From a virus: a stretch of DNA of 64,000 bases. The DNA is taken from IMG/VR virus record IMGVR_UViG_3300009164_000039; one strand, given 5' to 3'. Both the position numbers and the translations under genes were made by a program. Positions 3,814 through 12,287 of this stretch are shown here, one piece after another. Numbering within the stretch: the stretch's first letter is position 1; each line of letters opens with the position of its first letter. Below the pieces are notes generated by a model. That model was not told where the DNA came from. It made no database searches and saw nothing but the letters and a program-made list of their open reading frames with translations.

Positions 3814-4371
3814 TTAGGCAGTGTACCGGTAGTTGACCATGATTCCCCAGCTTTCTTGCTGGCGAATATCGCTGGTGTCTGCATCAAAGTTCACTGCATG
3901 CAGGCTAGCACCGTTGCCTAAATGGAACTTGGCCACAGGATCTTTGCGTGATGCAATGAACTCTCGCACTTGTTCTTCTGTAGGAGGTGCATCAAAATGC
4001 TTGCGCAGACTAGGTACAGGGCTCAATGTGTAGAAGTTTTGCACACCTTGTGCGCTGAAATGTCCCACAGCTTCTTTCAATGCTCTAGCACCCACACCCA
4101 ACAAGGCATCAGGTAGTCGAAAGATTGTGTAAAACATGGCAGTGAGACCTTCATCTTTGCTGTCCACAAAGATACCTTTCATGCTTTGCACTAGATCGTC
4201 ACCCACACGTGTGCAAATCATGCATTGATTTTTATCTTCTTCTTCATACATCAGCACAGTGCGTGTGCCCACAGTACGTGTTTCCTTATCAATAGTTGGA
4301 TGCACAGGGTCATGTGCAATTAGCTCTAACCAAGAGCGATCAAATTTTTCAGAGTTGGATGGAATAATCAT
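3814..4371 (-). CDS. Malonyl-CoA decarboxylase catalytic (C-terminal, GNAT-fold) domain, stand-alone
   Basis: Motifs AMFYTI, FYTLSPVP and DPVAKFHLGNGASLHAVNFDAD...WGIMVNYRY match MCD signatures. The start at 4371 follows an AAGGA SD and a TAAATA promoter; the ORF-track start at 4413 overlaps a terminator. Confidence 0.85.
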   Translation of the reverse strand: MIIPSNSEKFDRSWLELIAHDPVHPTIDKETRTVGTRTVLMYEEEDKNQCMICTRVGDDLVQSMKGIFVDSKDEGLTAMFYTIFRLPDALLGVGARALKEAVGHFSAQGVQNFYTLSPVPSLRKHFDAPPTEEQVREFIASRKDPVAKFHLGNGASLHAVNFDADTSDIRQQESWGIMVNYRYTA

Positions 4372-4413
4372 GGCATTTCCTTGAGGCATTATATGCGTAT
4401 TTATTACGGCCAT

Positions 4414-4433
4414 AAAAAAAGGACCGAAGTCCT
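4414..4433 (-). terminator. Intrinsic terminator ending the tRNA cluster
   Basis: AGGAC-TTCG-GTCCT hairpin followed by a T tract. Confidence 0.85.
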
Positions 4434-4441
4434 GGCTATAG

Positions 4442-4517
4442 TGGTCTCTCTGAGCTGAGTTGAACAGCTATCTAAACTTTAGGAGAGTCTTGTTCTATCC
4501 TATTGAACTACAGAGAG
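4442..4517 (-). tRNA. tRNA-Arg(CCU)
   Basis: Cloverleaf, loop CT-CCT-AA, encoded CCA. Confidence 0.9.
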
Positions 4518-4522
4518 TATGT

Positions 4523-4614
4523 TGGCGGAAGACGGAGGAGTCGAACCCCATCCCTGTTAAGAGAACCTGGTTTTCAAGGCCAGTCGCAGGACCAACCCCG
4601 CTGCATCATCTTCC
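4523..4614 (-). tRNA. tRNA-Ser(UGA)
   Basis: Cloverleaf with long variable arm, loop CT-TGA-AA, CCA. Confidence 0.9.
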
Positions 4615-4620
4615 ATTGAT

Positions 4621-4694
4621 TGGCGTACCCCCAGAGACTCGAACTCCGACGAACAGTTTTGGAGACTGCTATGCTGCCATTACATTAGGGATAC
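4621..4694 (-). tRNA. tRNA-Trp(CCA)
   Basis: Loop CT-CCA-AA, TTCGA T-loop, CCA. Confidence 0.92.
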
Positions 4695-4699
4695 ATTAT

Positions 4700-4775
4700 T
4701 GGTTGCGGGACTTGGATTTGAACCAAGGATGGCAAAGGCTTATGAGACCTCGCTGGTGACCGGACCCTTCCCGCG
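4700..4775 (-). tRNA. tRNA-Met(CAU), probably initiator-type
   Basis: Loop CT-CAT-AA; C1:A72 mismatch typical of fMet; anticodon stem lacks the full 3 G-C pairs. Confidence 0.85.
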
Positions 4776-4783
4776 ATAGATTC

Positions 4784-4857
4784 TATACTGAAACACACTC
4801 ACCCGAATGGACATATCCTGAGTTCCGCCTGCTGTCGGAAGTGTGTTTTAGTATAGT
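4784..4857 (-). ncRNA. Hairpin-closed small RNA module of unknown function
   Basis: 17-bp terminal inverted repeat ctatactgaaacacact / agtgtgttttagtatag with ~40 nt interior; boundaries approximate. Confidence 0.5.
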
Positions 4858-5742
4858 GGAGGACTGAGAATACATCTCTCCCATAAGCACCTCAAGCATT
4901 ATTACTAGCCTTGCGAGCCAGCTTTCTCTTGACTTCCACTAGGGTCCTTGCGGATCTCCCAGTCTGCTTACAGCATCGCCGTTTTTAACGTCAGGCAGTA
5001 GACGTGTCATCATATGCTATTCTGCGGATTCCATTCCGTTAGCCTTGCGAGCTATTCAGGTGCGCTAACACCTTACGAACCCCCCTCCACAAACTAATGT
5101 CACCTTGCGAGCTTCATTAGACTTGATTCACTTGCGTGTCAAGTATTAGATACTTTTCACATATGACCGAGGCAGTCTTTGCGTTTTTGTAATGATAGTC
5201 AGGATTTGAACCCGACTGCATCCAGCTTAAAAGGCTAGCGTTCAACCATTGAACTTTATCAACCTACCGTGATGAGCTACCTCTGTTGCTACATAATCTT
5301 TTGGACTACATAATACAACTCACCACATACCTTTCCTCTTGCGGAGTAATCAGTGATGTTTCACGACCAGTGTCCTGCATTGCTACAGTCCACCACCCAT
5401 TAACATTGCACACGAGCCCTTGGGTGCAAACCCTCGAACCAATGCACTACCCTTTCTCATACCAGCTGACTGATTGGTTTTGTTGGGAAGTCAGCACCAC
5501 CTGTTACTTTTCATGCACCCTGGTTCCCTTGCAGGCCAGTCGACGCACATTCTTTCCCCAACATCAGCTTTGCTGTTACAACCACCGGTCTTATCAGTGA
5601 TCGCTACCTCGCGATAGTGAGCAGGCTTGTTTACATGAACCATTGCTGGCGCAGGAGTGTAGGACTCATCTGCTTTGGGTGGGTCACCCCACTTATTCTT
5701 CGTACACTAGCAAGCTAGCATACAGGACAATAAACTGCCCCG
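4857..5742 (-). ncRNA. Large ornate structured RNA, GOLLD-like
   Basis: ~0.9 kb with no credible sense ORF; six C-GCAA-G hairpin loops (4910, 4947, 5044, 5104, 5131, 5338) plus further GNRA loops; inside a phage tRNA cluster; own consensus promoter; embedded tRNA-like domain. Family assignment is by resemblance, not a covariance-model search. Confidence 0.7.
5193..5261 (-). tRNA. tRNA-Lys(UUU)-like domain embedded in the GOLLD-like RNA (no CCA)
   Basis: D arm gttc/gaac, anticodon arm ctagc-CTTTTAA-gctgg, T arm tcggg-TTCAAAT-cctga, short acceptor tgata/tatca, no 3' CCA. Confidence 0.75.
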
Positions 5743-5805
5743 AAATCTTTATGCAATTGAACACTGTATGCACATTTGTATAAAGACTTGTTAACCTAAG
5801 CATCT

Positions 5806-5834
5806 ATTATAAGACACTTTTTATTTGTTGTCAA
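5806..5834 (-). promoter_or_regulatory. Sigma70-type promoter for the GOLLD-like RNA
   Basis: TTGACA-17 bp-TATAAT, perfect consensus. Confidence 0.88.
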
Positions 5835-5865
5835 TATATTTTGAGCAAAGTCCTAAAAATACATT

Positions 5866-5941
5866 TGGTAGGGCCACCCGGACTCGAACCGGGAACTGGC
5901 AGATTAAAAGTCTGCTGTGATAACCATTTCACCATAACCCC
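5866..5941 (-). tRNA. tRNA-Lys(UUU)
   Basis: Loop CT-TTT-AA, CCA. Confidence 0.93.
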
Positions 5942-5946
5942 GTATA

Positions 5947-6022
5947 TGGTCCCTGCGGCCGGAATCGAACCGGCAACCTTCTGATTAAGAGTCAGTTGCG
6001 CTACCTATTGCGCCACACAGGG
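5947..6022 (-). tRNA. tRNA-Lys(CUU)
   Basis: Loop CT-CTT-AA, CCA. Confidence 0.93.
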
Positions 6023-6083
6023 TTGTTCGTAATTTTTTGATTTTACGTGCCAACCCTAGACCAATACGGGATCTAGAGCGACA

Positions 6084-6104
6084 CTAGAGTTTACCTCGTT
6101 TCAT
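6084..6104 (-). CDS. Putative mini leader ORF MKRGKL followed by a hairpin
   Basis: GGAG SD (6111-6114), ATG AAA CGA GGT AAA CTC TAG, then a tgtcg/tggca + ctagatc/ggtctag stem. Confidence 0.45.
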   Translation of the reverse strand: MKRGKL

Positions 6105-6132
6105 GTCATTCTCCTTTGAATTAAAAACTTAC

Positions 6133-6206
6133 TGGTGCTCAAGTACAGAATCGAACTGTTGACTGCTCCTTACCATGGAGCCGTTATACCACTTAACTAC
6201 AAGAGC
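6133..6206 (-). tRNA. tRNA-Thr(GGU)
   Basis: gctcc-ATGGTAA-ggagc; unusual A32; CCA. Confidence 0.88.
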
Positions 6207-6207
6207 T

Positions 6208-6283
6208 TGGTGGAAGTGGTGAGACTCGAACTCACGATAGACACCGTATGAAGGTGGCGCATTAGCCGCTATGCTACACTTCC
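6208..6283 (-). tRNA. tRNA with CAU anticodon (elongator Met or Ile2)
   Basis: Loop TT-CAT-AC, CCA. Confidence 0.88.
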
Positions 6284-6287
6284 AGAC

Positions 6288-6365
6288 TGGAGCAACGGAC
6301 AGGATTTGAACCTGTGGTTTTCGGGATTTGCAATCCCGTGCATTGGGCCACTCTGCCACCGTTGC
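6288..6365 (-). tRNA. tRNA-Cys(GCA)
   Basis: cggga-TTGCAAA-tcccg, discriminator U, CCA. Confidence 0.92.
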
Positions 6366-6371
6366 ATTTGT

Positions 6372-6447
6372 TGGAGCGGGCGATCGGGTTCGAACCGACG
6401 ACATTTACCTTGGCAAGGTAATGCTCTACCAACTGAGCTACGCCCGC
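6372..6447 (-). tRNA. tRNA-Gly(GCC)
   Basis: ttacc-TTGCCAA-ggtaa, CCA. Confidence 0.95.
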
Positions 6448-6452
6448 ATAAA

Positions 6453-6655
6453 TTAGTGCCTAGCTACTCACACCACATGAGCCCTAGACTGAGCAGTTTA
6501 CTCTGTCTCACGTTACTGTCGTTTGGTCCAGCTATCGTCAACCCGAGATATTTTCCGTACTCCTGAGATGAAGTCGTGTGGTAAGATCTCGCGCACCAAG
6601 TCCGTCGTTATGGCAAGGGACCACTCGCCCACTTTAATAACCGTAAAGTGTAACG
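6453..6655 (-). ncRNA. ~200-nt structured non-tRNA RNA (possibly manA-motif-like)
   Basis: Long-range pairing tggtgc/gcacta and cttaccaca/tgtggtgtgag closes a multistem domain, with extra 5' hairpins. Family name is a recollection-level guess. Confidence 0.5.
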
Positions 6656-6662
6656 GAGTTTT

Positions 6663-6738
6663 TGGCTCCACAGGGTGGGCTCGAACCACCGACCAAATGA
6701 TTAACAGTCATCTACTCTACCGACTGAGCTACTGCGGA
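6663..6738 (-). tRNA. tRNA-Asn(GUU)
   Basis: Loop CT-GTT-AA, CCA. Confidence 0.95.
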
Positions 6739-6745
6739 ATAAACT

Positions 6746-6835
6746 TGGCGGAACGAAAGAGACTCGAACTCTTAAACCGGGATTAACCGATCGACGGTTT
6801 AGCAAACCGCTCCAATACCATTATGGGACCGTTCC
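6746..6835 (-). tRNA. tRNA-Ser(GCU)
   Basis: Loop TT-GCT-AA, long variable arm, CCA. Confidence 0.92.
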
Positions 6836-6845
6836 TTGTATTACT

Positions 6846-6874
6846 ATTATATAGCAACTGTGCATGCATGTCAA
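6846..6874 (-). promoter_or_regulatory. Sigma70-type promoter internal to the tRNA cluster
   Basis: TTGACA-17 bp-TATAAT, perfect consensus. Confidence 0.88.
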
Positions 6875-6882
6875 CTATATTC

Positions 6883-6958
6883 TGGTGTTTCCTAGTGGGC
6901 TTGAACCACTGACCTTTAGGATGTCGACCTAGTGCTCTACCAGCTGAGCTAAGGAAAC
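6883..6958 (-). tRNA. tRNA-Val(GAC)
   Basis: Loop TC-GAC-AT (non-canonical C33), CCA. Confidence 0.85.
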
Positions 6959-6959
6959 C

Positions 6960-7038
6960 TGGTACCCTGTCTCTGATTCGAACAGAGAGAACTCTTCCTT
7001 TTGAGAGAAGCGACTTTACCTAATTTGTCCAACAGGGC
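6960..7038 (-). tRNA. tRNA-Leu(CAA)
   Basis: cttct-CTCAAAA-ggaag, short variable region, CCA. Confidence 0.87.
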
Positions 7039-7044
7039 ATTGTG

Positions 7045-7120
7045 TGGTACCAAGAGTTGGACTCGAACCAACCACACCTAGTGCTTCAAACTAGTGCTCT
7101 ACCTGATGAGCTATCTTGGC
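7045..7120 (-). tRNA. tRNA-Phe(GAA)
   Basis: ctagt-TTGAAGC-actag, CCA. Confidence 0.92.
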
Positions 7121-7127
7121 ATTATCT

Positions 7128-7186
7128 TAGGGACGCCGGCTCAGCTTGGTCGTTTAAGACACGCAGGACATCTGCGTGGCTCCCTA
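7128..7186 (-). ncRNA. Small three-way RNA with TCTTAAACGACCAAGC core (copy 1; possibly Acido-Lenti-1-like)
   Basis: Closing stem tagggagcc/ggcgtcccta, hairpin cacgcag/ctgcgtg; core shared with the 8009-8069 element. Confidence 0.6.
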
Positions 7187-7192
7187 TAAAAT

Positions 7193-7267
7193 TGGGTTGA
7201 GGTACGAGGATCGAACTCGTGATAGCGGAATCACAACCCGCGGTTTTGCCACTAAACTAACCTCAAC
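7193..7267 (-). tRNA. tRNA-His(GUG)
   Basis: Loop TT-GTG-AT, encoded G-1 opposite C73, CCA. Confidence 0.93.
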
Positions 7268-7273
7268 ATTGTC

Positions 7274-7348
7274 TGGCCGGTCCTGCAGGAATCGAACCCA
7301 CACCGCTTGGTTCGAAGCCAAGCATTCTATCCATTGAACTAAGGACCG
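7274..7348 (-). tRNA. tRNA-Arg(UCG)
   Basis: cttgg-CTTCGAA-ccaag, CCA. Confidence 0.93.
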
Positions 7349-7355
7349 AATATGT

Positions 7356-7429
7356 TGGCACGGGAACTAGGGATCGAACCTAGGACGACAGAGTCAAAGT
7401 CTGTTGTGTTACCTCTACACCATTCCCGA
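7356..7429 (-). tRNA. tRNA-Gln(UUG)
   Basis: acaga-CTTTGAC-tctgt, CCA. Confidence 0.92.
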
Positions 7430-7436
7430 ACAGATC

Positions 7437-7513
7437 TGGTGCGACCAGAGAGATTCGAACTCCCCACCCCAACGTTCGTAGCGTTGTACTCTATCCAAAT
7501 GAGCTATGGTCGC
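7437..7513 (-). tRNA. tRNA-Arg(ACG)
   Basis: caacg-CTACGAA-cgttg, CCA. Confidence 0.93.
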
Positions 7514-7520
7514 ATAATTA

Positions 7521-7570
7521 GTGCTAGATTGTTTACTGCACAACCTAGCAAAGCAGGGGTCTGTAAACTG
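7521..7570 (-). ncRNA. Compact putative H-type pseudoknot RNA
   Basis: P1 gttta/taaac plus ctgc/gcag; loop tgctagg complementary to 3' tail tctagca. Confidence 0.45.
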
Positions 7571-7614
7571 CATATAACTTATCACATTGTACTCCATATG
7601 CAAGGGAGAGTGCT

Positions 7615-7689
7615 TGGTATCCTGCACGGGTATCGATCCCGTTCCTACACCTTGAAAGGGTATTGATCTAGCCAGTAATCTAGCAGGAT
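7615..7689 (-). tRNA. tRNA-Glu(UUC), atypical copy
   Basis: atacc-CTTTCAA-ggtgt; T-loop reads ATCGATA (A at 54); CCA. Confidence 0.8.
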
Positions 7690-7698
7690 GTATTGAAT

Positions 7699-7918
7699 TT
7701 GAGAGCCTACGCCGCATTTATCGTAGATTTATTCAGGACTTACCGGCCGCCTAGCCTGACCTCGAGCACGATGGATATCACTTGGGATCCGTCCAGCGTA
7801 GTCTCCTTTACAGACCTCCGCAGTTGCCCGCGGGTGGGAGTTGAACCCATTTGCCTTTTACTGTTTTGGTCCTTCGAAGAAACCTCATTAGCGTGACTGT
7901 ACTTGCTGACACTCTCAA
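7699..7918 (-). ncRNA. ~220-nt stem-closed RNA containing a T-arm mimic
   Basis: Terminal IR tttgagag/ctctcaaa; internal tggg-TTCAACT-ccca T-arm; no anticodon/CCA architecture. Confidence 0.45.
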
Positions 7919-7922
7919 AACT

Positions 7923-7996
7923 TGGTGGAGGACCAGGGTATTGAACCCTTGTAGTCAGTATGCTTGCAAGGCAAACCCGCCGCCCTCGGCTCCCCC
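7923..7996 (-). tRNA. tRNA-Ala(UGC), atypical copy with degenerate D arm
   Basis: Loop CT-TGC-AA, G3:U70 Ala identity pair, CCA; D arm poorly paired. Confidence 0.75.
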
Positions 7997-8008
7997 CATT
8001 GTACTATC

Positions 8009-8069
8009 TACAGGACACCCCTATGGGCTTGGTTGTTTAAGAGTACGCCTACCCAGCGACTCTCCTCTA
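8009..8069 (-). ncRNA. Small three-way RNA with TCTTAAACAACCAAGC core (copy 2)
   Basis: Hairpin agagtcgc/gcgtactct, core, short ccc/ggg hairpin, closing agga/tcct. Confidence 0.55.
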
Positions 8070-8074
8070 AAACT

Positions 8075-8150
8075 TGGCGCCTCGTAGGGGACTCGAACCC
8101 CTGACATCCGACTAGACAGGCCGGCACTCTACCAACTGAGTTAACGAAGC
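8075..8150 (-). tRNA. tRNA-Asp(GUC)
   Basis: ccggc-CTGTCTA-gtcgg, CCA. Confidence 0.92.
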
Positions 8151-8157
8151 AGAAAGA

Positions 8158-8231
8158 TGGAGCGGGGTAGGAGAATCGAACTCCTCGCTTTAGCTTGGAA
8201 GGCTAAGGTATTACCACTATACGAACCCCGC
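8158..8231 (-). tRNA. tRNA-Gly(UCC)
   Basis: ttagc-CTTCCAA-gctaa, CCA. Confidence 0.94.
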
Positions 8232-8239
8232 ATAGATTT

Positions 8240-8315
8240 TGGTGGAGGATACAGGGATCGAACCTGCGACCTATTGCTTGCAAAGCAACCGCTCTCCCAA
8301 CTGAGCTAATCCCCC
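8240..8315 (-). tRNA. tRNA-Ala(UGC), canonical copy
   Basis: Loop TT-TGC-AA, G3:U70, CCA. Confidence 0.95.
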
Positions 8316-8322
8316 AATGACA

Positions 8323-8399
8323 TGGTCGGAGTACAAGGATTCGAACCTTGGACCCCCTGGTCCCAAACCAGGTGCGCTACCAGACTGCGCCACACTCCG
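8323..8399 (-). tRNA. tRNA-Pro(UGG)
   Basis: cctgg-TTTGGGA-ccagg, CCA. Confidence 0.95.
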
Positions 8400-8404
8400 A
8401 TGAT

Positions 8405-8480
8405 TGGTGCCCCCTGTCCGACTCGAACAGACCACCTTCTGATTACAAAACAGATGCTCTACCTGATGAGCTAAGAGGGC
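8405..8480 (-). tRNA. tRNA-Thr(UGU)
   Basis: Loop TT-TGT-AA, CCA. Confidence 0.92.
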
Positions 8481-8487
8481 AAAAACT

Positions 8488-8562
8488 TGGTGCGAGATGA
8501 GAGTGTCGAACTCCCGACCCTCTGAATGTAAATCAGATGCTCTACCGCTGAGCTAATCTCGC
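8488..8562 (-). tRNA. tRNA-Val(UAC)
   Basis: tctga-TTTACAT-tcaga, CCA. Confidence 0.92.
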
Positions 8563-8588
8563 AAATTAATTTTGTATTTTATTTAACA

Positions 8589-8663
8589 TGGTTGCCATGG
8601 ACAGTTTCGAAATGTCGACCTATCGGTTATCAACCGATTGCTCTTCCTCTGAGCTACACGGCA
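8589..8663 (-). tRNA. tRNA-Ile(GAU)
   Basis: atcgg-TTGATAA-ccgat, CCA. Confidence 0.92.
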
Positions 8664-8669
8664 AAAATG

Positions 8670-8744
8670 TGGTACTGGGCACGGGAATCGAACCCGTCTT
8701 ACAAACGTGAAAGGCTTGTGTCCTAACCGATAGACGAGCCCAGC
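8670..8744 (-). tRNA. tRNA-Glu(UUC), canonical copy
   Basis: caagc-CTTTCAC-gtttg, TTCGA T-loop, CCA. Confidence 0.92.
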
Positions 8745-8751
8745 ATACAAA

Positions 8752-8838
8752 TGGTGGAGACGGTAGGAATCGAACCTACGGTGTTTCTGATGTCACTGAT
8801 TTACAGTCAGCTGCCTTCGCCGCTCGGCACACATCTCC
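8752..8838 (-). tRNA. tRNA-Tyr(GUA)
   Basis: gctga-CTGTAAA-tcagt, long variable arm, CCA. Confidence 0.93.
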
Positions 8839-8840
8839 AT

Positions 8841-8931
8841 ATAGGAACACACTACCAGTCCCGAGGATTCGAACCTCTTTCTCTTATAGTTTACCACGAC
8901 TTTTGCAGTCAGGCAAGCAATGTGTTTTTAT
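8841..8931 (-). ncRNA. Stem-closed RNA module with a T-arm mimic
   Basis: Terminal IR around aacaca/tgtgtt; internal gagg-TTCGAAT-cctc. Confidence 0.45.
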
Positions 8932-8932
8932 A

Positions 8933-9009
8933 TGGTGCCCCAGAGGAGACTCGAACTCCTAAAATTTGGCTTCTAAGACCAACACGTATACCAATTCCGT
9001 CACCGGGGC
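8933..9009 (-). tRNA. tRNA-Leu(UAG)
   Basis: ttggt-CTTAGAA-gccaa, short variable region, CCA. Confidence 0.9.
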
Positions 9010-9099
9010 AATTTGTCACAACAGATTGTTAAGGAACCATGTTCGTCTGCATGACTATGCAGTTGTTATTAGCAACACGATGTTTGCTACAGTTCCACA

Positions 9100-9127
9100 A
9101 GTATAACATCTTTTTCATTGTTGTCTA
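9100..9127 (-). promoter_or_regulatory. Possible sigma70-type promoter
   Basis: TAGACA-16 bp-TATACT. Confidence 0.45.
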
Positions 9128-9161
9128 CTAGTTTGTAAAAATATTTTTCTTCTGTTGTTTT

Positions 9162-9240
9162 TATGCACTCTAGTTGTTGCGTCCACAACCTGCCGCCTGC
9201 CGAGTCATGGTCGGGTGGGCTTGGCCTTCTAGAGTGTATA
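9162..9240 (-). ncRNA. Hairpin-closed small RNA module
   Basis: 12-bp terminal IR tatgcactctag/ctagagtgtata; interior contains AGGCGG; boundaries approximate. Confidence 0.45.
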
Positions 9241-9304
9241 GTAAAGTGTTCTACACGGATACGTACCCGCCTTTCGCCTCGCGGCTAGAGAACACTTTAC
9301 TATA
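9237..9304 (-). ncRNA. Hairpin-closed small RNA module
   Basis: Perfect 16-bp terminal IR tatagtaaagtgttct/agaacactttactata; interior contains AGGCGG. Confidence 0.5.
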
Positions 9305-9425
9305 ACTGGATTTTACACATCTGCGTTGTCGCCACAGACTTATCATCCCCAGTCCCGCCCTCATTATAGCCGATGTTTTGAGTGCCGGCAGGGTCGCGTT
9401 CCCTATACACACTTTTCATGATCCT

Positions 9426-9462
9426 AAAAACAAAAAACCCCAGGGTGTTAAGCCTAGGGTCC
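9426..9462 (-). terminator. Attenuator terminator upstream of the main tRNA operon
   Basis: accctagg-cttaacac-cctggggt followed by TTTTTGTTTTT; the 5' arm is also complementary to the leader ORF 3' end. Confidence 0.85.
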
Positions 9463-9488
9463 TTGGAGTTTGCAGTTGTTAATTTGTG

Positions 9489-9626
9489 TTAACTGTGCAT
9501 GGTCTCCTGGACCCTTGATTCCTGTGGTGTGCGATCATTACTAATCTCAGTCGCAGACCAGCTGGCCATTGGCAATGAATAGCCTAGGTTATGCTGTTTG
9601 CTAAAGAGTGAGAATGATTTACACAT
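9489..9626 (-). CDS. 45-aa attenuator leader peptide (MCKSFSLFSKQHNLGYSLPMASWSATEISNDRTPQESRVQETMHS)
   Basis: Manual translation; AAGGA SD upstream; lies between a consensus promoter and a terminator; its 3' end forms the antiterminator. Confidence 0.72.
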   Translation of the reverse strand: MCKSFSLFSKQHNLGYSLPMASWSATEISNDRTPQESRVQETMHS

Positions 9627-9674
9627 TTTGTTTACTTTTCCTTTTTTACAGGCTGCTTTTGCAACCTATGTCGT

Positions 9675-9703
9675 ATTGTATATTTATTTAGTCCTGCTGT
9701 CAA
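9675..9703 (-). promoter_or_regulatory. Sigma70-type promoter with an embedded CTAAATA late-promoter core
   Basis: TTGACA-17 bp-TACAAT; spacer gcaggaCTAAATAaata. Confidence 0.82.
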
Positions 9704-9754
9704 CCAGCTTTGGAATATTTAGTTTTTTGTTGTAAAAATACAACAAATTGAATT

Positions 9755-9853
9755 TGGTGCCCTTGGCAGGAGTCGAACCTGCACACTGTGGCTTATCTAG
9801 CCACTGCTTTGGCGAGGTATAAGCTCGCTTCTTTACCATTAAGCTACAAGGGC
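9755..9853 (-). tRNA. tRNA-Ile(UAU) with a large extra arm (99 nt)
   Basis: gcgag-CTTATAC-ctcgc; ~28-nt variable region with gtggct/agccac hairpin; TTCGA T-loop; CCA. Confidence 0.82.
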
Positions 9854-9858
9854 ATGAT

Positions 9859-9942
9859 TGGTGCGACTGGCCGGACTCGAACCGGCATGCCGTGAAGCGG
9901 GAGATTTTAAGTCTCCTGAGTATACCATTTCTCCACAGTCGC
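9859..9942 (-). tRNA. tRNA-Leu(UAA)
   Basis: ggaga-CTTAAAA-tctcc, variable arm, CCA. Confidence 0.93.
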
Positions 9943-9962
9943 ATTAGAGCACGTTGATCAGA

Positions 9963-10007
9963 TCAACGTATTCGTAATCGTATGCTGTGGAGAGCCTTGT
10001 AGTTCAT
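9963..10007 (-). CDS. Putative leaderless 14-aa mini-ORF MNYKALHSIRLRIR
   Basis: ATG 7 nt below a -10 box; ends ATA CGA TTA CGA ATA CGT TGA; stop lies inside a 9-bp inverted repeat (9951-9969). Confidence 0.5.
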   Translation of the reverse strand: MNYKALHSIRLRIR

Positions 10008-10013
10008 GTGTGT

Positions 10014-10041
10014 ATAATAGCTTGAATGTTTATTTATGTCA
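10014..10041 (-). promoter_or_regulatory. Sigma70-type promoter with overlapping ATAAATA
   Basis: TTGACA-16 bp-TATTAT. Confidence 0.65.
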
Positions 10042-10050
10042 AGCAAAAAT

Positions 10051-10839
10051 TTATGGCTTGACAACCAAAAATCCAGCGATAGCAGGGATCACTCGATTGC
10101 GTCGAGGTTGGCTGGCCATGGTGGTCATGCTGGTTTGTACTACAAATCCCACTTGTTCTACATGTGCTTGCACTTGATCTGTGCAGGTGTACAAAAATAT
10201 ATGATCATGCGATGCGGCATTGATAGCCGCACTAACAAATGCTGTACCACCCGGCCGTAGCACACGATGCAGTTGTGTCAAGAACTGTACCGGATCCTCC
10301 ACATGCTCTAGCACTTCAACACACACCAACCAATCAGTACTGGCATCCGGTGTTTGTTCTATGCTTTGCACTGTTGCCTGGTACCTAGTGGGGTTCAGTG
10401 CAGATGCAAACTCAACTGAAGCAGGACTGATGTCAATTGCATGTCCTTGTATGTTAGACCATGTTTGCAAGATCTTCCAAGAGTATGCGCCAGATCCGAC
10501 CCCAACATCTAAAAACTCAGTAGCATCAGCCATCTGTTGCACAAATTGATCTTGGAAAAAGCAAAGCTGACGATACTGGTGCGGCCATAGCCAGTGTGAT
10601 AACAACAGTCCGGGCAAGTACTCTGTCATCATGTGTTCTTTGTTTAGGTACACTGCGTCACTGACCTGTTGGTGAGTACGATTGCGATACTGTCCGGTGC
10701 GGTTGAATTCAATTTGGTACTTGATTAGTCTAGTACAAAAATTACGATAGGCAACTTGATAGGACACAGGAAAGCAATCAAATTCTTGTTTCCAAGAATC
10801 ACCAAACAGCCGATATGCTTGATCTTGATGGGAGATCAT
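10051..10839 (-). CDS. Class I SAM-dependent methyltransferase
   Basis: FLDVGVGSG motif I; EVLEHVEDP...LHRVLRPGG. Confidence 0.88.
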   Translation of the reverse strand: MISHQDQAYRLFGDSWKQEFDCFPVSYQVAYRNFCTRLIKYQIEFNRTGQYRNRTHQQVSDAVYLNKEHMMTEYLPGLLLSHWLWPHQYRQLCFFQDQFVQQMADATEFLDVGVGSGAYSWKILQTWSNIQGHAIDISPASVEFASALNPTRYQATVQSIEQTPDASTDWLVCVEVLEHVEDPVQFLTQLHRVLRPGGTAFVSAAINAASHDHIFLYTCTDQVQAHVEQVGFVVQTSMTTMASQPRRNRVIPAIAGFLVVKP

Positions 10840-11327
10840 TTAACAAAGTCCACCATTAGTATCACACGTTCGCTTGATGATTTATTAGCAGCCTGGTGTT
10901 TTTTCCTATCATCAAACAACATCATCTGCCCTTCTTCCCAATAGTAGCAGGTGTTTTTTACTTGTATAAATGCGTTGCCAGGGCAGATCAGTCCCAGATG
11001 CGATCTCCACACATTATCAGTGTAGCCTCTATGTGGATGAATCACACAGTCTGGTTCCATGATAGAAAATCCTGCTAGGTACAGGCCCGGAATGTCTTTG
11101 ATTAGTTCTCGGGTGACAGGACAATTATCCCATCCTGCTTGTTTCTGGTATTGATGTACAAGAAAATACAAGCGCCAACGCTCGTTGTGCAGTTCTTTCA
11201 TGTGCCAGAGTTCTGCTTGTTCTCTGTAGAGTAAAAACTCATCACGGATTGCTTGCCAGTTGTCTTGCAACGGCTTGAGGAACGGGTAAGCATCAATTGA
11301 TTGAAACACAGGAAGTTGATCTCTCAT
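10836..11327 (-). CDS. Aspartyl/asparaginyl beta-hydroxylase family 2OG-Fe(II) dioxygenase (LpxO-like)
   Basis: AGFSIMEPDCVIHPHRGY, RSHLGLICP, W.EG...LFDD...H.A.N.S..ERVILMVDF. Confidence 0.88.
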   Translation of the reverse strand: MRDQLPVFQSIDAYPFLKPLQDNWQAIRDEFLLYREQAELWHMKELHNERWRLYFLVHQYQKQAGWDNCPVTRELIKDIPGLYLAGFSIMEPDCVIHPHRGYTDNVWRSHLGLICPGNAFIQVKNTCYYWEEGQMMLFDDRKKHQAANKSSSERVILMVDFVK

Positions 11328-11349
11328 ACAAGTATATATGCTGAGGTAT

Positions 11350-11424
11350 TGGTCCGGCGCACAGGAATCGAACCCGTATTCTAGAGGTAGAAGCTCTATG
11401 TATTATCCGTTATACGAACGCCAG
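11350..11424 (-). tRNA. tRNA-Arg(UCU)
   Basis: tagag-CTTCTAC-ctcta, CCA. Confidence 0.92.
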
Positions 11425-11429
11425 TTGTT

Positions 11430-11504
11430 TGGTGGGCTGACTTGGAATTGAACCAAGACTCAATGAATTATGAGTTCACTGCTTTACCATTAAGCTATCA
11501 GCCC
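11430..11504 (-). tRNA. tRNA with CAU anticodon (Ile2 or Met)
   Basis: gtgaa-CTCATAA-ttcat, CCA. Confidence 0.9.
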
Positions 11505-11512
11505 GTTGAACT

Positions 11513-11541
11513 ATTGTATGTTAATTTATCTTTTGTGTCAA
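11513..11541 (-). promoter_or_regulatory. Sigma70-type promoter for the tRNA(CAU)-tRNA-Arg-hydroxylase-methyltransferase unit
   Basis: TTGACA-17 bp-TACAAT. Confidence 0.8.
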
Positions 11542-12287
11542 TCTTCAACTGAATAGTAGTCTTTGTCCAACCAAGCATGCACGATATCTTCTTGTCTTAG
11601 ATATCCGTAGCTGTTGACACTGGCTATACAGTTGTCGTTGATCAGGCCTTGGTCAGCCAGGTGCTGCCAATTGGTAGTTCGTGGATCTAAAAAGTTTTCT
11701 GAGTTTTTATAAACTGCGGCATAGATCCAAGGATTTTCTCTGCGCTTGTAGAAATAGGCATCACGACAATCAAACCCATTGATGGCCAACATGTACATTA
11801 GGTTGCCGTATGTGTAGTTGTAGTAGCATCCATTCATGGTGCGATGCACTAGTCTGTTGTGATGATAGTTTATCTGCTGTGGAATAGTTAAAATCATCAT
11901 ACCATTCACATTCATTTGCTGGTTCCACAATTTAAGTGTGCTCAATGGATTGATTGCGTACTGGAACGCATCGTGGCACCAAAGAACATCCACAGGCTTG
12001 GGCAACAATGCAGTTTCAAAATCGCCTTTGATCACTGTGACATTTTCCGGCAAGTCTACTACCAGTCGATTGGTATCTATATCCACAGCATAACAATCAA
12101 AATTATAGGGCTCAAATGGGTCTTCTTTGTTGGTTAGTGTAGCCCACCAATTGATATCCAAGCCACCACCACAGCCCAGGTCTGCCACAGTGGTAACAGA
12201 TTCTAGAAAATCATCATAACCGTACAACAGATCTAGCACATAACTGGAATGTTCGTGACTGTGGTACGGGTTTCTAAACTGTTCCAT
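11538..12287 (-). CDS. Class I SAM-dependent methyltransferase
   Basis: VADLGCGGG motif I; YAVDID; DVLWCHDAFQY. Confidence 0.85.
   Translation of the reverse strand: MEQFRNPYHSHEHSSYVLDLLYGYDDFLESVTTVADLGCGGGLDINWWATLTNKEDPFEPYNFDCYAVDIDTNRLVVDLPENVTVIKGDFETALLPKPVDVLWCHDAFQYAINPLSTLKLWNQQMNVNGMMILTIPQQINYHHNRLVHRTMNGCYYNYTYGNLMYMLAINGFDCRDAYFYKRRENPWIYAAVYKNSENFLDPRTTNWQHLADQGLINDNCIASVNSYGYLRQEDIVHAWLDKDYYSVED

Follow-up and report, generated by a model that had tools for sequence, protein, structure and literature searches.

The IMG/VR virus record IMGVR_UViG_3300009164_000039, analyzed here as a window of 64,000 nucleotides (nt), carries an island of transfer RNA (tRNA) genes on its minus strand (4420-11541) whose output appears to be coupled to the state of translation. 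We consider it probable, at about 60%, that three plain units and three units with a translated sensor together exert negative feedback on the phage tRNA supply, laid over constitutive units. The units that begin at promoters P1 (Met/Arg), P4 (Ser onward) and P5 (the structured RNA GOLLD and four tRNAs) look unregulated. An earlier note on this DNA had described the whole island as one feedback regulon that senses translation. The coupling of tRNA output to translation finds strong comparative evidence in leader peptides that contain all 20 amino acids and in lysine mini-open reading frames (mini-ORFs) kept in frame, but the island is not one system, as the P1, P4 and P5 units have no leader. 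The usual explanations for phage tRNA genes are that they patch differences in codon usage or form a reserve in case of host shut-off or attack by anticodon nucleases, and to our knowledge almost nothing has been reported on the control of their expression. The hundreds of natural variants described below point to a phage that measures decoding itself and feeds the result to its own tRNA genes, which would amount to a natural general sensor of translation stress.

One sensor unit is headed by P3 and contains a leader ORF followed by two mutually exclusive RNA helices, as follows.

9675-9703, minus strand: promoter P3, TTGACA-17-TACAAT, at the head of the attenuator unit.
9489-9626, minus strand: leader ORF of 45 codons with all 20 amino acids, conserved in relatives.
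9504-9515, minus strand: antiterminator 5' strand AGGGTCCAGGAG, within the last 9 codons of the leader, pairing with 9468-9456.
9427-9468, minus strand: intrinsic terminator inside the island (stem 9464-9433, then U6), its 5' arm overlapped by the antiterminator 3' strand CTCCAAGGACCCT (9468-9456).

A BLAST comparison of the island with its relatives showed that the leader ORF, the terminator behind it and the sequence that follows are all conserved. Copies of the attenuator were taken from IMG/VR stretches by a sequence pattern (GGGTCC..AGGACCCYAGG..CCYRGGGUUUU), which matched at least 119 stretches, and 111 distinct versions were analyzed. A pattern for the terminator only recovered nearly the same set; the two extra copies among 80 rows bore GGGTTC and AGGTCC (wobble or one-mismatch variants) and would still pair. 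The antiterminator strand accompanied the terminator in about 97 to 100% of the copies found by the terminator-only search. In each copy an ORF of 41 to 74 codons ended 14 to 27 nt past the start of GGGTCC and 20 to 30 nt before the terminator, and this ORF was open in 124 of 124 copies.

The composition of the leader peptide carries most of the argument. All 20 kinds of amino acid were present in 91 (82%) of the 111 distinct leader peptides, 19 kinds in 17 and 18 kinds in 3. By comparison, all 20 kinds occurred in 3.1% of length-matched segments from 1,572 proteins of the same phages and in 4.6% of random draws from the leaders' own composition. The peptides themselves are diverse, with a median identity of 34%, and when they were grouped into clusters below 50% identity, all 20 kinds were retained in 22 of 31. 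Cys was found exactly once in 90 of 100 short leaders and was nevertheless spread over 25 alignment columns; His occupied 21 columns and internal Met 26. That a residue is kept while its position shifts is what selection on having at least one of each would predict, and plain descent would not. As a control, a 41- to 60-residue ORF that lies 3' of the terminator in most relatives contained 13 to 18 kinds in 74 of 74 versions. Taken from these comparisons, the composition of the leader is evidently under selection, and the presence of all 20 amino acids is hard to explain except by sensing. The rarity of synonymous codons in the leaders (-1.21 versus -1.00 ± 0.11) is confounded by the constraint on RNA structure and was not used.

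We then considered how the leader could act on the terminator. AGGGTCCAGGAG is complementary to CTCCAAGGACCCT, which is also the 5' arm of the terminator, and the two helices are therefore mutually exclusive. Across the distinct versions, GGGTCC is read in three different frames (R/G-V in 67, G-S in 39 and x-G-P in 5), indicating that it is conserved as RNA and not as peptide. At the variable pair of the terminator stem, the 111 versions had C-G in 43, U.G in 38, U-A in 30 and C.A in none, although the search had allowed all four. The extension of the antiterminator next to GGGTCC co-varied in rare variants (GGAG/CTCC, GGG/CCC, TTAAA/TTTAA and GAAG/CTTC). The mean stability of the antiterminator hairpin was -25.5 kcal/mol, versus -17.4 kcal/mol for the terminator. 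In fold simulations, the antiterminator formed in 103 of 111 versions as free RNA and in 104 of 111 with a ribosome placed in the middle of the ORF, and a ribosome in the last 4 to 8 codons gave the terminator in 111 of 111.

These parts suggest the following sequence of events. Host RNA polymerase would read the island from six sigma-70-type promoters. A ribosome that reaches the last ~8 codons of the leader in time would cover AGGGTCCAGGAG, which lets the terminator form and ends transcription. With a ribosome that is slow or has stalled anywhere earlier in the leader, AGGGTCCAGGAG would pair with the 5' arm of the terminator and allow read-through into the structured RNA E110, two hairpin RNAs and the main tRNA array. 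The 45-codon attenuator would thus be a general gauge of decoding speed, a function that we infer from parts visible in the sequence. An intrinsic terminator lies between the leader and the genes, the competing antiterminator has one strand that a ribosome can mask and, at the level of amino acids, the leader keeps all 20 while the array supplies tRNAs for amino acids. We infer a switch that follows the logic of trp-type attenuation without a superattenuation hairpin, in which fast and complete translation halts transcription and everything else reads through.

The same structures could be read as a timer or gauge of ribosome availability, in which the 45-codon ORF is translated early and stops transcription, and later, when ribosomes are saturated or the host is shut off, goes untranslated and leaves the array on by default. 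The free RNA adopts the antiterminator in 103 of 111 versions, so that the absence of a ribosome would mean ON; many leaders have a weak or no Shine-Dalgarno (SD) motif; and the P3 spacer contains the late-promoter-like motif CTAAATA. A pure initiation gauge needs no set amino acid content, yet every amino acid is kept, and we regard this reading on its own as unlikely. It is not exclusive of sensing of the tRNA pool, and the two would be compatible.

For the feedback reading it matters what lies behind the terminator. In this window the following features come after it.

9300-9414, minus strand: E110, a structured RNA of ~110 nt, the first to be transcribed on read-through.
9165-9305, minus strand: two long-stem hairpin cassettes (9305-9235 and 9230-9165), a predicted fold, conserved in the related contigs L085, L096 and L087.
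9100-9127, minus strand: sixth, internal promoter, weaker but conserved, TAGACA-16-TATACT with an upstream TG.
6883-9009, minus strand: main tRNA array from Leu(UAG) to Val(GAC), 21 ARAGORN genes and spacer RNAs.
7694-7923, minus strand: E225, a structured RNA of ~225 nt between a tRNA-Ala-like gene and tRNA-Glu, with a T-arm-like hairpin and a covarying terminal stem.

Among the related copies with enough sequence, a tRNA array on the same strand began no more than 1.5 kb downstream of the attenuator in 84 of 84, often with 10 to 23 genes in 3 kb, and tRNAs were found upstream of it in only 18 of 87. No promoter-like site was present between the terminator and the first tRNA in 53 of the 84 copies. 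At the internal promoter (9127-9100), TAGACA is TTGACA in the closest relatives, and an invariant leader of 45 nt comes after it. The small protein gene that otherwise follows the terminator is replaced, in this window and the relatives nearest to it, by E110 and the two hairpin cassettes; among related contigs, about 12% have E110 in its place immediately behind the attenuator. The first gene past the attenuator in 62 of 84 contigs (L031, L084, L089, L103 and others) encodes a conserved helical protein of 50 to 58 amino acids with the motif HTLT.EQ..KLI..K.ERA, which would accordingly be co-regulated with the tRNAs. Separately, Agrobacterium phage Atu_ph07 (MF403008.1, ~339036-339246, minus strand) contains a 42-codon ORF with 18 kinds of amino acid (~339246-339118), the 3' part of which, CCGGTTCC, complements the 5' arm of a strong intrinsic terminator ~95 nt before a tRNA block. 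Judged by this layout, the locus is a possible cultured example of the same design.

A second sensor precedes the two lysine tRNA genes.

6084-6104, minus strand: lysine mini-ORF encoding MKRGKL and a stop codon, with the SD motif GGAG at 6114-6111.
6023-6084, minus strand: 15-base-pair hairpin that begins with the G of the TAG stop, and a small second hairpin; the 3' arm complements the linker and the first bases of tRNA-Lys.
5947-6022 and 5866-5941, minus strand: tRNA-Lys(CUU) and tRNA-Lys(UUU), respectively (ARAGORN).

In nine relatives we found the same order of SD motif, ATG, M-K-R, one to three variable residues, K, L or R and TAG, followed by a covarying hairpin. When a search pattern allowed any spacing from 3 to 15 nt, the 118 distinct contexts that it returned had gaps of only 4, 7, 10 or 13 nt, and the mini-ORF was in frame in 118 of 118. 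The next gene was a tRNA-Lys in 110 of 112 contexts, usually CUU and then UUU. There is no U run after the hairpin, which is therefore not a terminator. Its 3' arm is instead complementary to the linker and the start of tRNA-Lys, with GGGTTG/CAACCC here and GGATGG/CCATCC or AGTCG/CGACT elsewhere. The duplex between the arm and the 5' end of its own tRNA had a mean stability of -10.25 kcal/mol, versus -7.95 ± 0.22 kcal/mol for permuted partners, and none of 300 permutations reached the observed value. The pairing is thus visible in the sequences, and its consequence for tRNA-Lys would be as follows. A ribosome that finishes the 6-codon Lys/Arg mini-ORF would open the hairpin, and the freed 3' arm could then bind the 5' end of tRNA-Lys, interfering with folding of the tRNA or with its cleavage by ribonuclease (RNase) P. 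A ribosome stalled at the first AAA would leave both the hairpin and tRNA-Lys intact.

The third candidate sensor lies under the control of P2, close to the upstream end of the island.

10014-10042, minus strand: promoter P2, TTGACA-17-TATTAT, with its predicted start on or beside the ATG of the mini-ORF.
9963-10007, minus strand: leader 3 mini-ORF, MNYKALHSIRLRIR and a stop codon, the latter inside a 9-base-pair hairpin.
9859-9942 and 9755-9853, minus strand: tRNA-Leu(UAA) and a 99-nt tRNA with a UAU anticodon, respectively (ARAGORN, and cloverleaf read by eye).

Because the P2 start falls on or beside the ATG, the message would be leaderless, and P2 would drive a mini-ORF rich in ATA, TTA and CGA ahead of the tRNAs for ATA and TTA codons. 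These three codons account for 5 of the 13 sense codons of the mini-ORF and for 5 of its last 6. Together they make up 2% of codons in the long genes of the window, giving a binomial probability of about 3e-6 by our own arithmetic. The genes that follow are tRNA-Leu(UAA) and then the UAU-anticodon tRNA. By eye, no clear alternative pairing between the leader 3 hairpin and tRNA-Leu was apparent. The UAU tRNA, which reads AUA, has a class-II-sized extra arm with a 6-base-pair hairpin and A73; ARAGORN labeled it Glu(CUC) here, which is a mislabel. It is kept in the relatives L052, L007, L124, L128, L138, L139, L144 and L145.

All three leader ORFs proposed in the earlier note are present, at 9626-9489, 6104-6084 and 10007-9963. 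That note had also called for a comparison of the architecture across related phages and had named unconserved leaders as grounds for abandoning the feedback idea. The comparison recovered the 45-codon leader in more than 119 contigs and the lysine mini-ORF in more than 120, whereas BLAST found leader 3 in one close relative only (L141, with a compensated hairpin), and its conservation is unproven.

Several points weigh against the feedback reading. An SD-like motif is present in just 36 of 111 leaders, so that many of them would have to be translated from leaderless or short-leader messages. The covariation in the antiterminator extension is weak or marginal, the observed value being reached by 8 of 200 permutations, and the GGGTCC core is invariant and hence uninformative for covariation. 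When the ribosome was set precisely at the stop codon, naive folding gave the antiterminator in 60 of 111 versions against 51; for this case we would argue that a helix cannot span a ribosome. In this window and about a quarter of the relatives, a promoter lies between the attenuator and the array, and the one at 9127-9100 makes the gate leaky here. We would expect the attenuator in this window to gate mainly E110 and the hairpin cassettes and to add to a basal transcription of the array. Neither the lysine nor the ATA/TTA leader has a terminator, so that their output is guessed. Moreover, the copies share descent, so that fewer independent events took place than their counts suggest; the turnover of Cys positions and the analysis by clusters are the better measures. 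Finally, RNA contigs cannot reveal starts, stops or switching. An RNA-library contig of low depth that bridges the attenuator terminator (9360-9510) was not counted as evidence of read-through, nor was the lack of cover over the protein genes flanking the island in four RNA libraries taken as expression evidence.

A different account is that of a passive supply island, in which every unit is expressed constitutively from a strong early promoter, the transcripts are processed by RNase P, Z and E, the small ORFs are incidental or encode small proteins and the hairpins act as signals for processing or stability. The tRNA regions of T4 and T5 are classically seen in this way: host polymerase acts at strong early promoters, small ORFs and small stable RNAs are interspersed and the tRNAs are released by host RNase P, E and Z. 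Those regions resemble the island in their clustering of tRNA genes amid small ORFs and stable RNAs, and we know of no translation-coupled switch described for them. Such an account would suit the P1, P4 and P5 units, which start directly at their RNAs with no leader, the conserved promoter downstream of the attenuator in this window, the stable-looking RNAs in the spacers and the fact that strong promoters are common throughout the lineage and not only at tRNAs. It leaves unexplained the all-20 leaders with their wandering Cys, His and Met, the occurrence of GGGTCC in three frames, the position at the head of an array in 84 of 84 copies, the 118 of 118 in-frame lysine mini-ORFs and the pairing between hairpin arm and tRNA 5' end. 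We consider it improbable, to about the same degree as a pure gauge of ribosome availability. Least likely is a counter-defense circuit in which the leaders detect the cleavage of specific tRNAs by host anticodon nucleases (PrrC, RloC, PARIS or VapC type) and replacements are released, with the Lys-like domain of GOLLD and E225 as decoys: it would draw on the dedicated lysine sensor before tRNA-Lys(UUU), the classical PrrC target, on the CCA-less Lys(UUU)-like domain of GOLLD that adjoins the lysine module and on the T-arm mimic of E225, but no nuclease, repair gene or host was identified in this analysis, sensing of slow decoding would equally serve codon-usage mismatch or host shut-off, and the decoy roles are pure conjecture.

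Within the feedback reading, a more specific version is conceivable, although we hold it only tentatively and would sooner bet against it. The island might be a layered, self-contained monitor of decoding capacity, in which an all-amino-acid attenuator turns on the main array together with its accompanying RNAs and codon-specific locks (Lys AAA; Ile AUA with Leu UUA) work post-transcriptionally, a ribosome that completes the mini-ORF causing the 5' end of the tRNA for those codons to be clamped. If this were true, ribosome-driven refolding that clamps a tRNA precursor would be a form of gene control not described for any tRNA, and the phage could replace exactly those tRNAs destroyed by a host anticodon nuclease; a link of the island to defense nucleases is a guess.

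The nearest known systems share some of these features. No paper on the control of phage tRNA genes by leader peptides came up in full-text literature searches. From its sequence features, the attenuator unit is probably leader-peptide attenuation in a new form, one that controls phage tRNAs. Amino acid operon attenuators include trpL, hisL, pheL, thrL and ilvL. Like the island, they combine a promoter, a short ORF that overlaps the antiterminator strand and an exclusive terminator, and a stalled ribosome leads to read-through (PMC1183508, in part). They control biosynthetic enzymes, however, whereas the island attenuator would control tRNAs and noncoding RNAs. Unlike their leaders, that of the island has no run of a single regulatory codon and contains instead at least one of every amino acid. 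We identified neither a 1:2 pause hairpin nor a superattenuation hairpin in the island, so that an untranslated leader would read ON, in contrast to the amino acid operon attenuators. In mycobacteria, stalling in the upstream ORF of whiB7 (wblC) causes antitermination in response to depletion of many amino acids, tRNAs or tRNA synthetases, and its coding sequence sets what is sensed (PMC10274678), as would hold for the island leader. The whiB7 ORF is alanine rich and gates a bacterial transcription factor (PMC10274678), whereas the island leader is balanced over 20 amino acids and would gate a phage tRNA array; the two have no sequence relation. The trn operon of Anabaena comprises ~26 accessory tRNA genes that are silent until translation is impaired (PMC8421152 and, in part, PMC10272220). 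This array is induced via promoter repeats, and the text of PMC8421152 contains neither "leader" nor "attenuat".

The remaining features of the island, in the direction of transcription, belong mostly to the plain units.

11513-11541, minus strand: promoter P1, TTGACA-17-TACAAT, its -10 box ending 9 nt before tRNA-Met, with no leader.
11430-11504 and 11350-11424, minus strand: tRNA-Met(CAU) and tRNA-Arg(UCU), respectively (ARAGORN/Rfam).
10836-11327, minus strand: Asp/Asn-hydroxylase-like protein, cupin type (Pfam PF05118, 2.4e-35).
10051-10839, minus strand: S-adenosylmethionine methyltransferase (Pfam PF08241, 1.9e-17), with a weak CmoB-family match.
6846-6874, minus strand: promoter P4, a perfect TTGACA-17-TATAAT, 10 nt before tRNA-Ser(GCU), with no leader.
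6133-6835, minus strand: tRNAs Ser(GCU), Asn, Gly(GCC), Cys, Met(CAU) and Thr(GGU) (ARAGORN).
5806-5834, minus strand: promoter P5, perfect consensus, at the head of the GOLLD unit.
4861-5799, minus strand: GOLLD RNA, with a variable 5' part to 5327, the Rfam 3' domain (5326-4861) and a tRNA-Lys(UUU)-like insert (5263-5189).
4442-4775, minus strand: the last four tRNAs, CAU (4775-4700), Trp (4694-4621), Ser(UGA) (4614-4524) and Arg(CCU) (4517-4442).
4413-4433, minus strand: final intrinsic terminator, AGGAC-UUCG-GUCCU (stem 4433-4420), then U7.

On the transcribed strand, P1 to P5 agree with TTGACA-17-TATAAT in 11 or 12 of 12 positions, which bears out the five near-consensus sigma-70 promoters of the earlier note at the level of sequence and leaves the weaker site at 9127-9100 as a sixth. 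The single UUCG terminator described there exists at 4433-4420, but it is not the only one, the attenuator stem at 9464-9433 being a second intrinsic terminator. On both strands of the 64-kb window we counted 9 such promoter sites, against 1.0 ± 1.1 in shuffled sequence, and 5 of the 9 fall within the 7.1 kb of the island (chance about 0.06). In 80 related contigs fetched via UvsX (813 kb), 113 sites were on the coding strand and 16 on the opposite strand; near-consensus sigma-70 sites are the standard strong promoters of this lineage. The layout from P1 to tRNA-Met recurs in L006, L007 and L031, and that from P4 to tRNA-Ser in L007. A promoter matching at 11 or more of 12 positions lies within 200 nt 5' of the 45-codon leader in 98 of 107 related copies, and 5 of 7 copies of GOLLD have a near-perfect promoter 430 to 590 nt ahead of the 3' domain.

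As the earlier note had suggested, ARAGORN and Rfam were run over the region, and they confirmed the tRNA set and GOLLD. The 32 tRNA genes called by ARAGORN span 4442 to 11504 and all lie on the minus strand. At a low threshold, ARAGORN together with Rfam added Ser(UGA) (4614-4524) and a third CAU tRNA (Met/Ile, 4775-4700), both ending in CCA, and also a marginal Ala-like gene (7998-7924), a degenerate tRNA-like piece (8922-8855) and the CCA-less Lys(UUU)-like domain embedded in GOLLD (5263-5189). The 34 clear CCA-encoding genes (32 plus the 2 added) and the 1 marginal gene bring the count to within one of the 35 given before, and the set covers 20 of 20 amino acids, as had been claimed. A 215-nt spacer (6662-6448) interrupts the Ser(GCU)-to-Thr unit, and its 3' part is kept in 5 contigs. 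An additional methyltransferase is encoded at 11538-12287; the hydroxylase-like protein and the methyltransferases may be tRNA-modifying enzymes.

Three non-tRNA structured RNAs of the island are firm, namely GOLLD, E225 and E110. The earlier note had counted about ten; of the other spacers, 4 folded better than shuffles, at z scores of -2.5 to -3.4, and 4 did not, so that the number is borne out for three. GOLLD has been described from phages as an RNA that exceeds 800 nt and adjoins tRNA islands; its 3' half is conserved, its 5' half varies and its linker contains a tRNA (bioRxiv 10.1101/2024.12.08.627333). The island copy matches the published RNA in all these traits and here has its own perfect promoter and would be co-transcribed with four tRNAs. 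It scored 201.3 bits against RF02032 (cut-off, 150) over model positions 1-416, the full 3' domain. Homology over 4842-5765 was found in six related contigs, each scoring 196 to 230 bits, and RNA libraries from three studies contained contigs that cover 4864-5734 with 0 or 1 differences. In the first seven relatives linked by UvsX, the 10 kb examined included tRNAs but not GOLLD.

For E225, 14 of 50 predicted pairs showed compensatory changes, those of the terminal stem included. An exact 24-mer of E225 was present in at least 20 viral contigs, always between tRNA genes, and had no occurrence in the bacterial and archaeal genome collection. Rfam gave no match over 7680-8085 with E up to 10. 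An assignment of E225 to YrlA or bacterial Y RNA (RF02553) was rejected on this result, the weak YrlA matches of the island falling on ordinary tRNAs. Likewise, a transfer-messenger RNA (tmRNA) at 7826-8059 was rejected, as it was represented by low-threshold "permuted" calls of ARAGORN only, with no Rfam match. In one lake RNA library, contigs unlike this copy over 7777-7885 had word depths of 2e4 to 7e4, which show that E225-like RNAs are abundant somewhere in those lakes and say nothing of this copy. In E110, 13 of 21 predicted pairs were compensatory across 13 copies, with indels that were not multiples of 3, and no Rfam match was obtained. We rejected a 39-residue ORF at 9419-9300 as a coding gene on the grounds that indels of 1, 2 and 3 nt occur at this place in relatives, alongside covarying helices. 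If the proposed units are correct, GOLLD and the two unnamed, apparently abundant RNAs would belong to a defined regulatory unit, a setting that may give a lead on what they do. Two spacer hairpins (7121-7192 and 8009-8074, minus strand) have a common CTTAAAC-ACCAAGC core, and one of them folds at a z score of -2.5.

The source of the window is an uncultured freshwater jumbo myophage of the Rak2/GAP32/CBB/Atu_ph07 UvsX group. The neighbors of the island encode UvsX-like and UvsY-like recombination proteins and tail-fiber-like proteins, and the UvsX of the window is 62 to 70% identical to those of the jumbo myophages Sinorhizobium Phosso, Pectobacterium CBB, Agrobacterium Atu_ph07 and Cronobacter GAP32. 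DNA sequencing runs that contain the stretch come from freshwater and lake metagenomes of many studies. A megablast search of the island against deposited phages returned nothing beyond a 53-nt tRNA-like match, and a distant blastn search of the attenuator and E225 against deposited phages returned no match, so that this sequence family is so far confined to uncultured contigs. A search for related loci with the hydroxylase-like protein of the island also gave no match. In the tRNA island of one related phage, L095, a two-piece (beta-type) tmRNA of the Betaproteobacteria type was found (7128-7490, minus strand; 128 bits), which hints at betaproteobacterial hosts for the phage group. The tRNA island of another relative, L052, contains a group I intron (9636-9827, plus strand; 68 bits) flanked by two perfect promoters. 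Just beyond the terminator of the island (3814-4413, minus strand) lies a gene for a 199-residue protein that matches the C-terminal catalytic part only of malonyl-CoA decarboxylase (PF05292, 6e-20).

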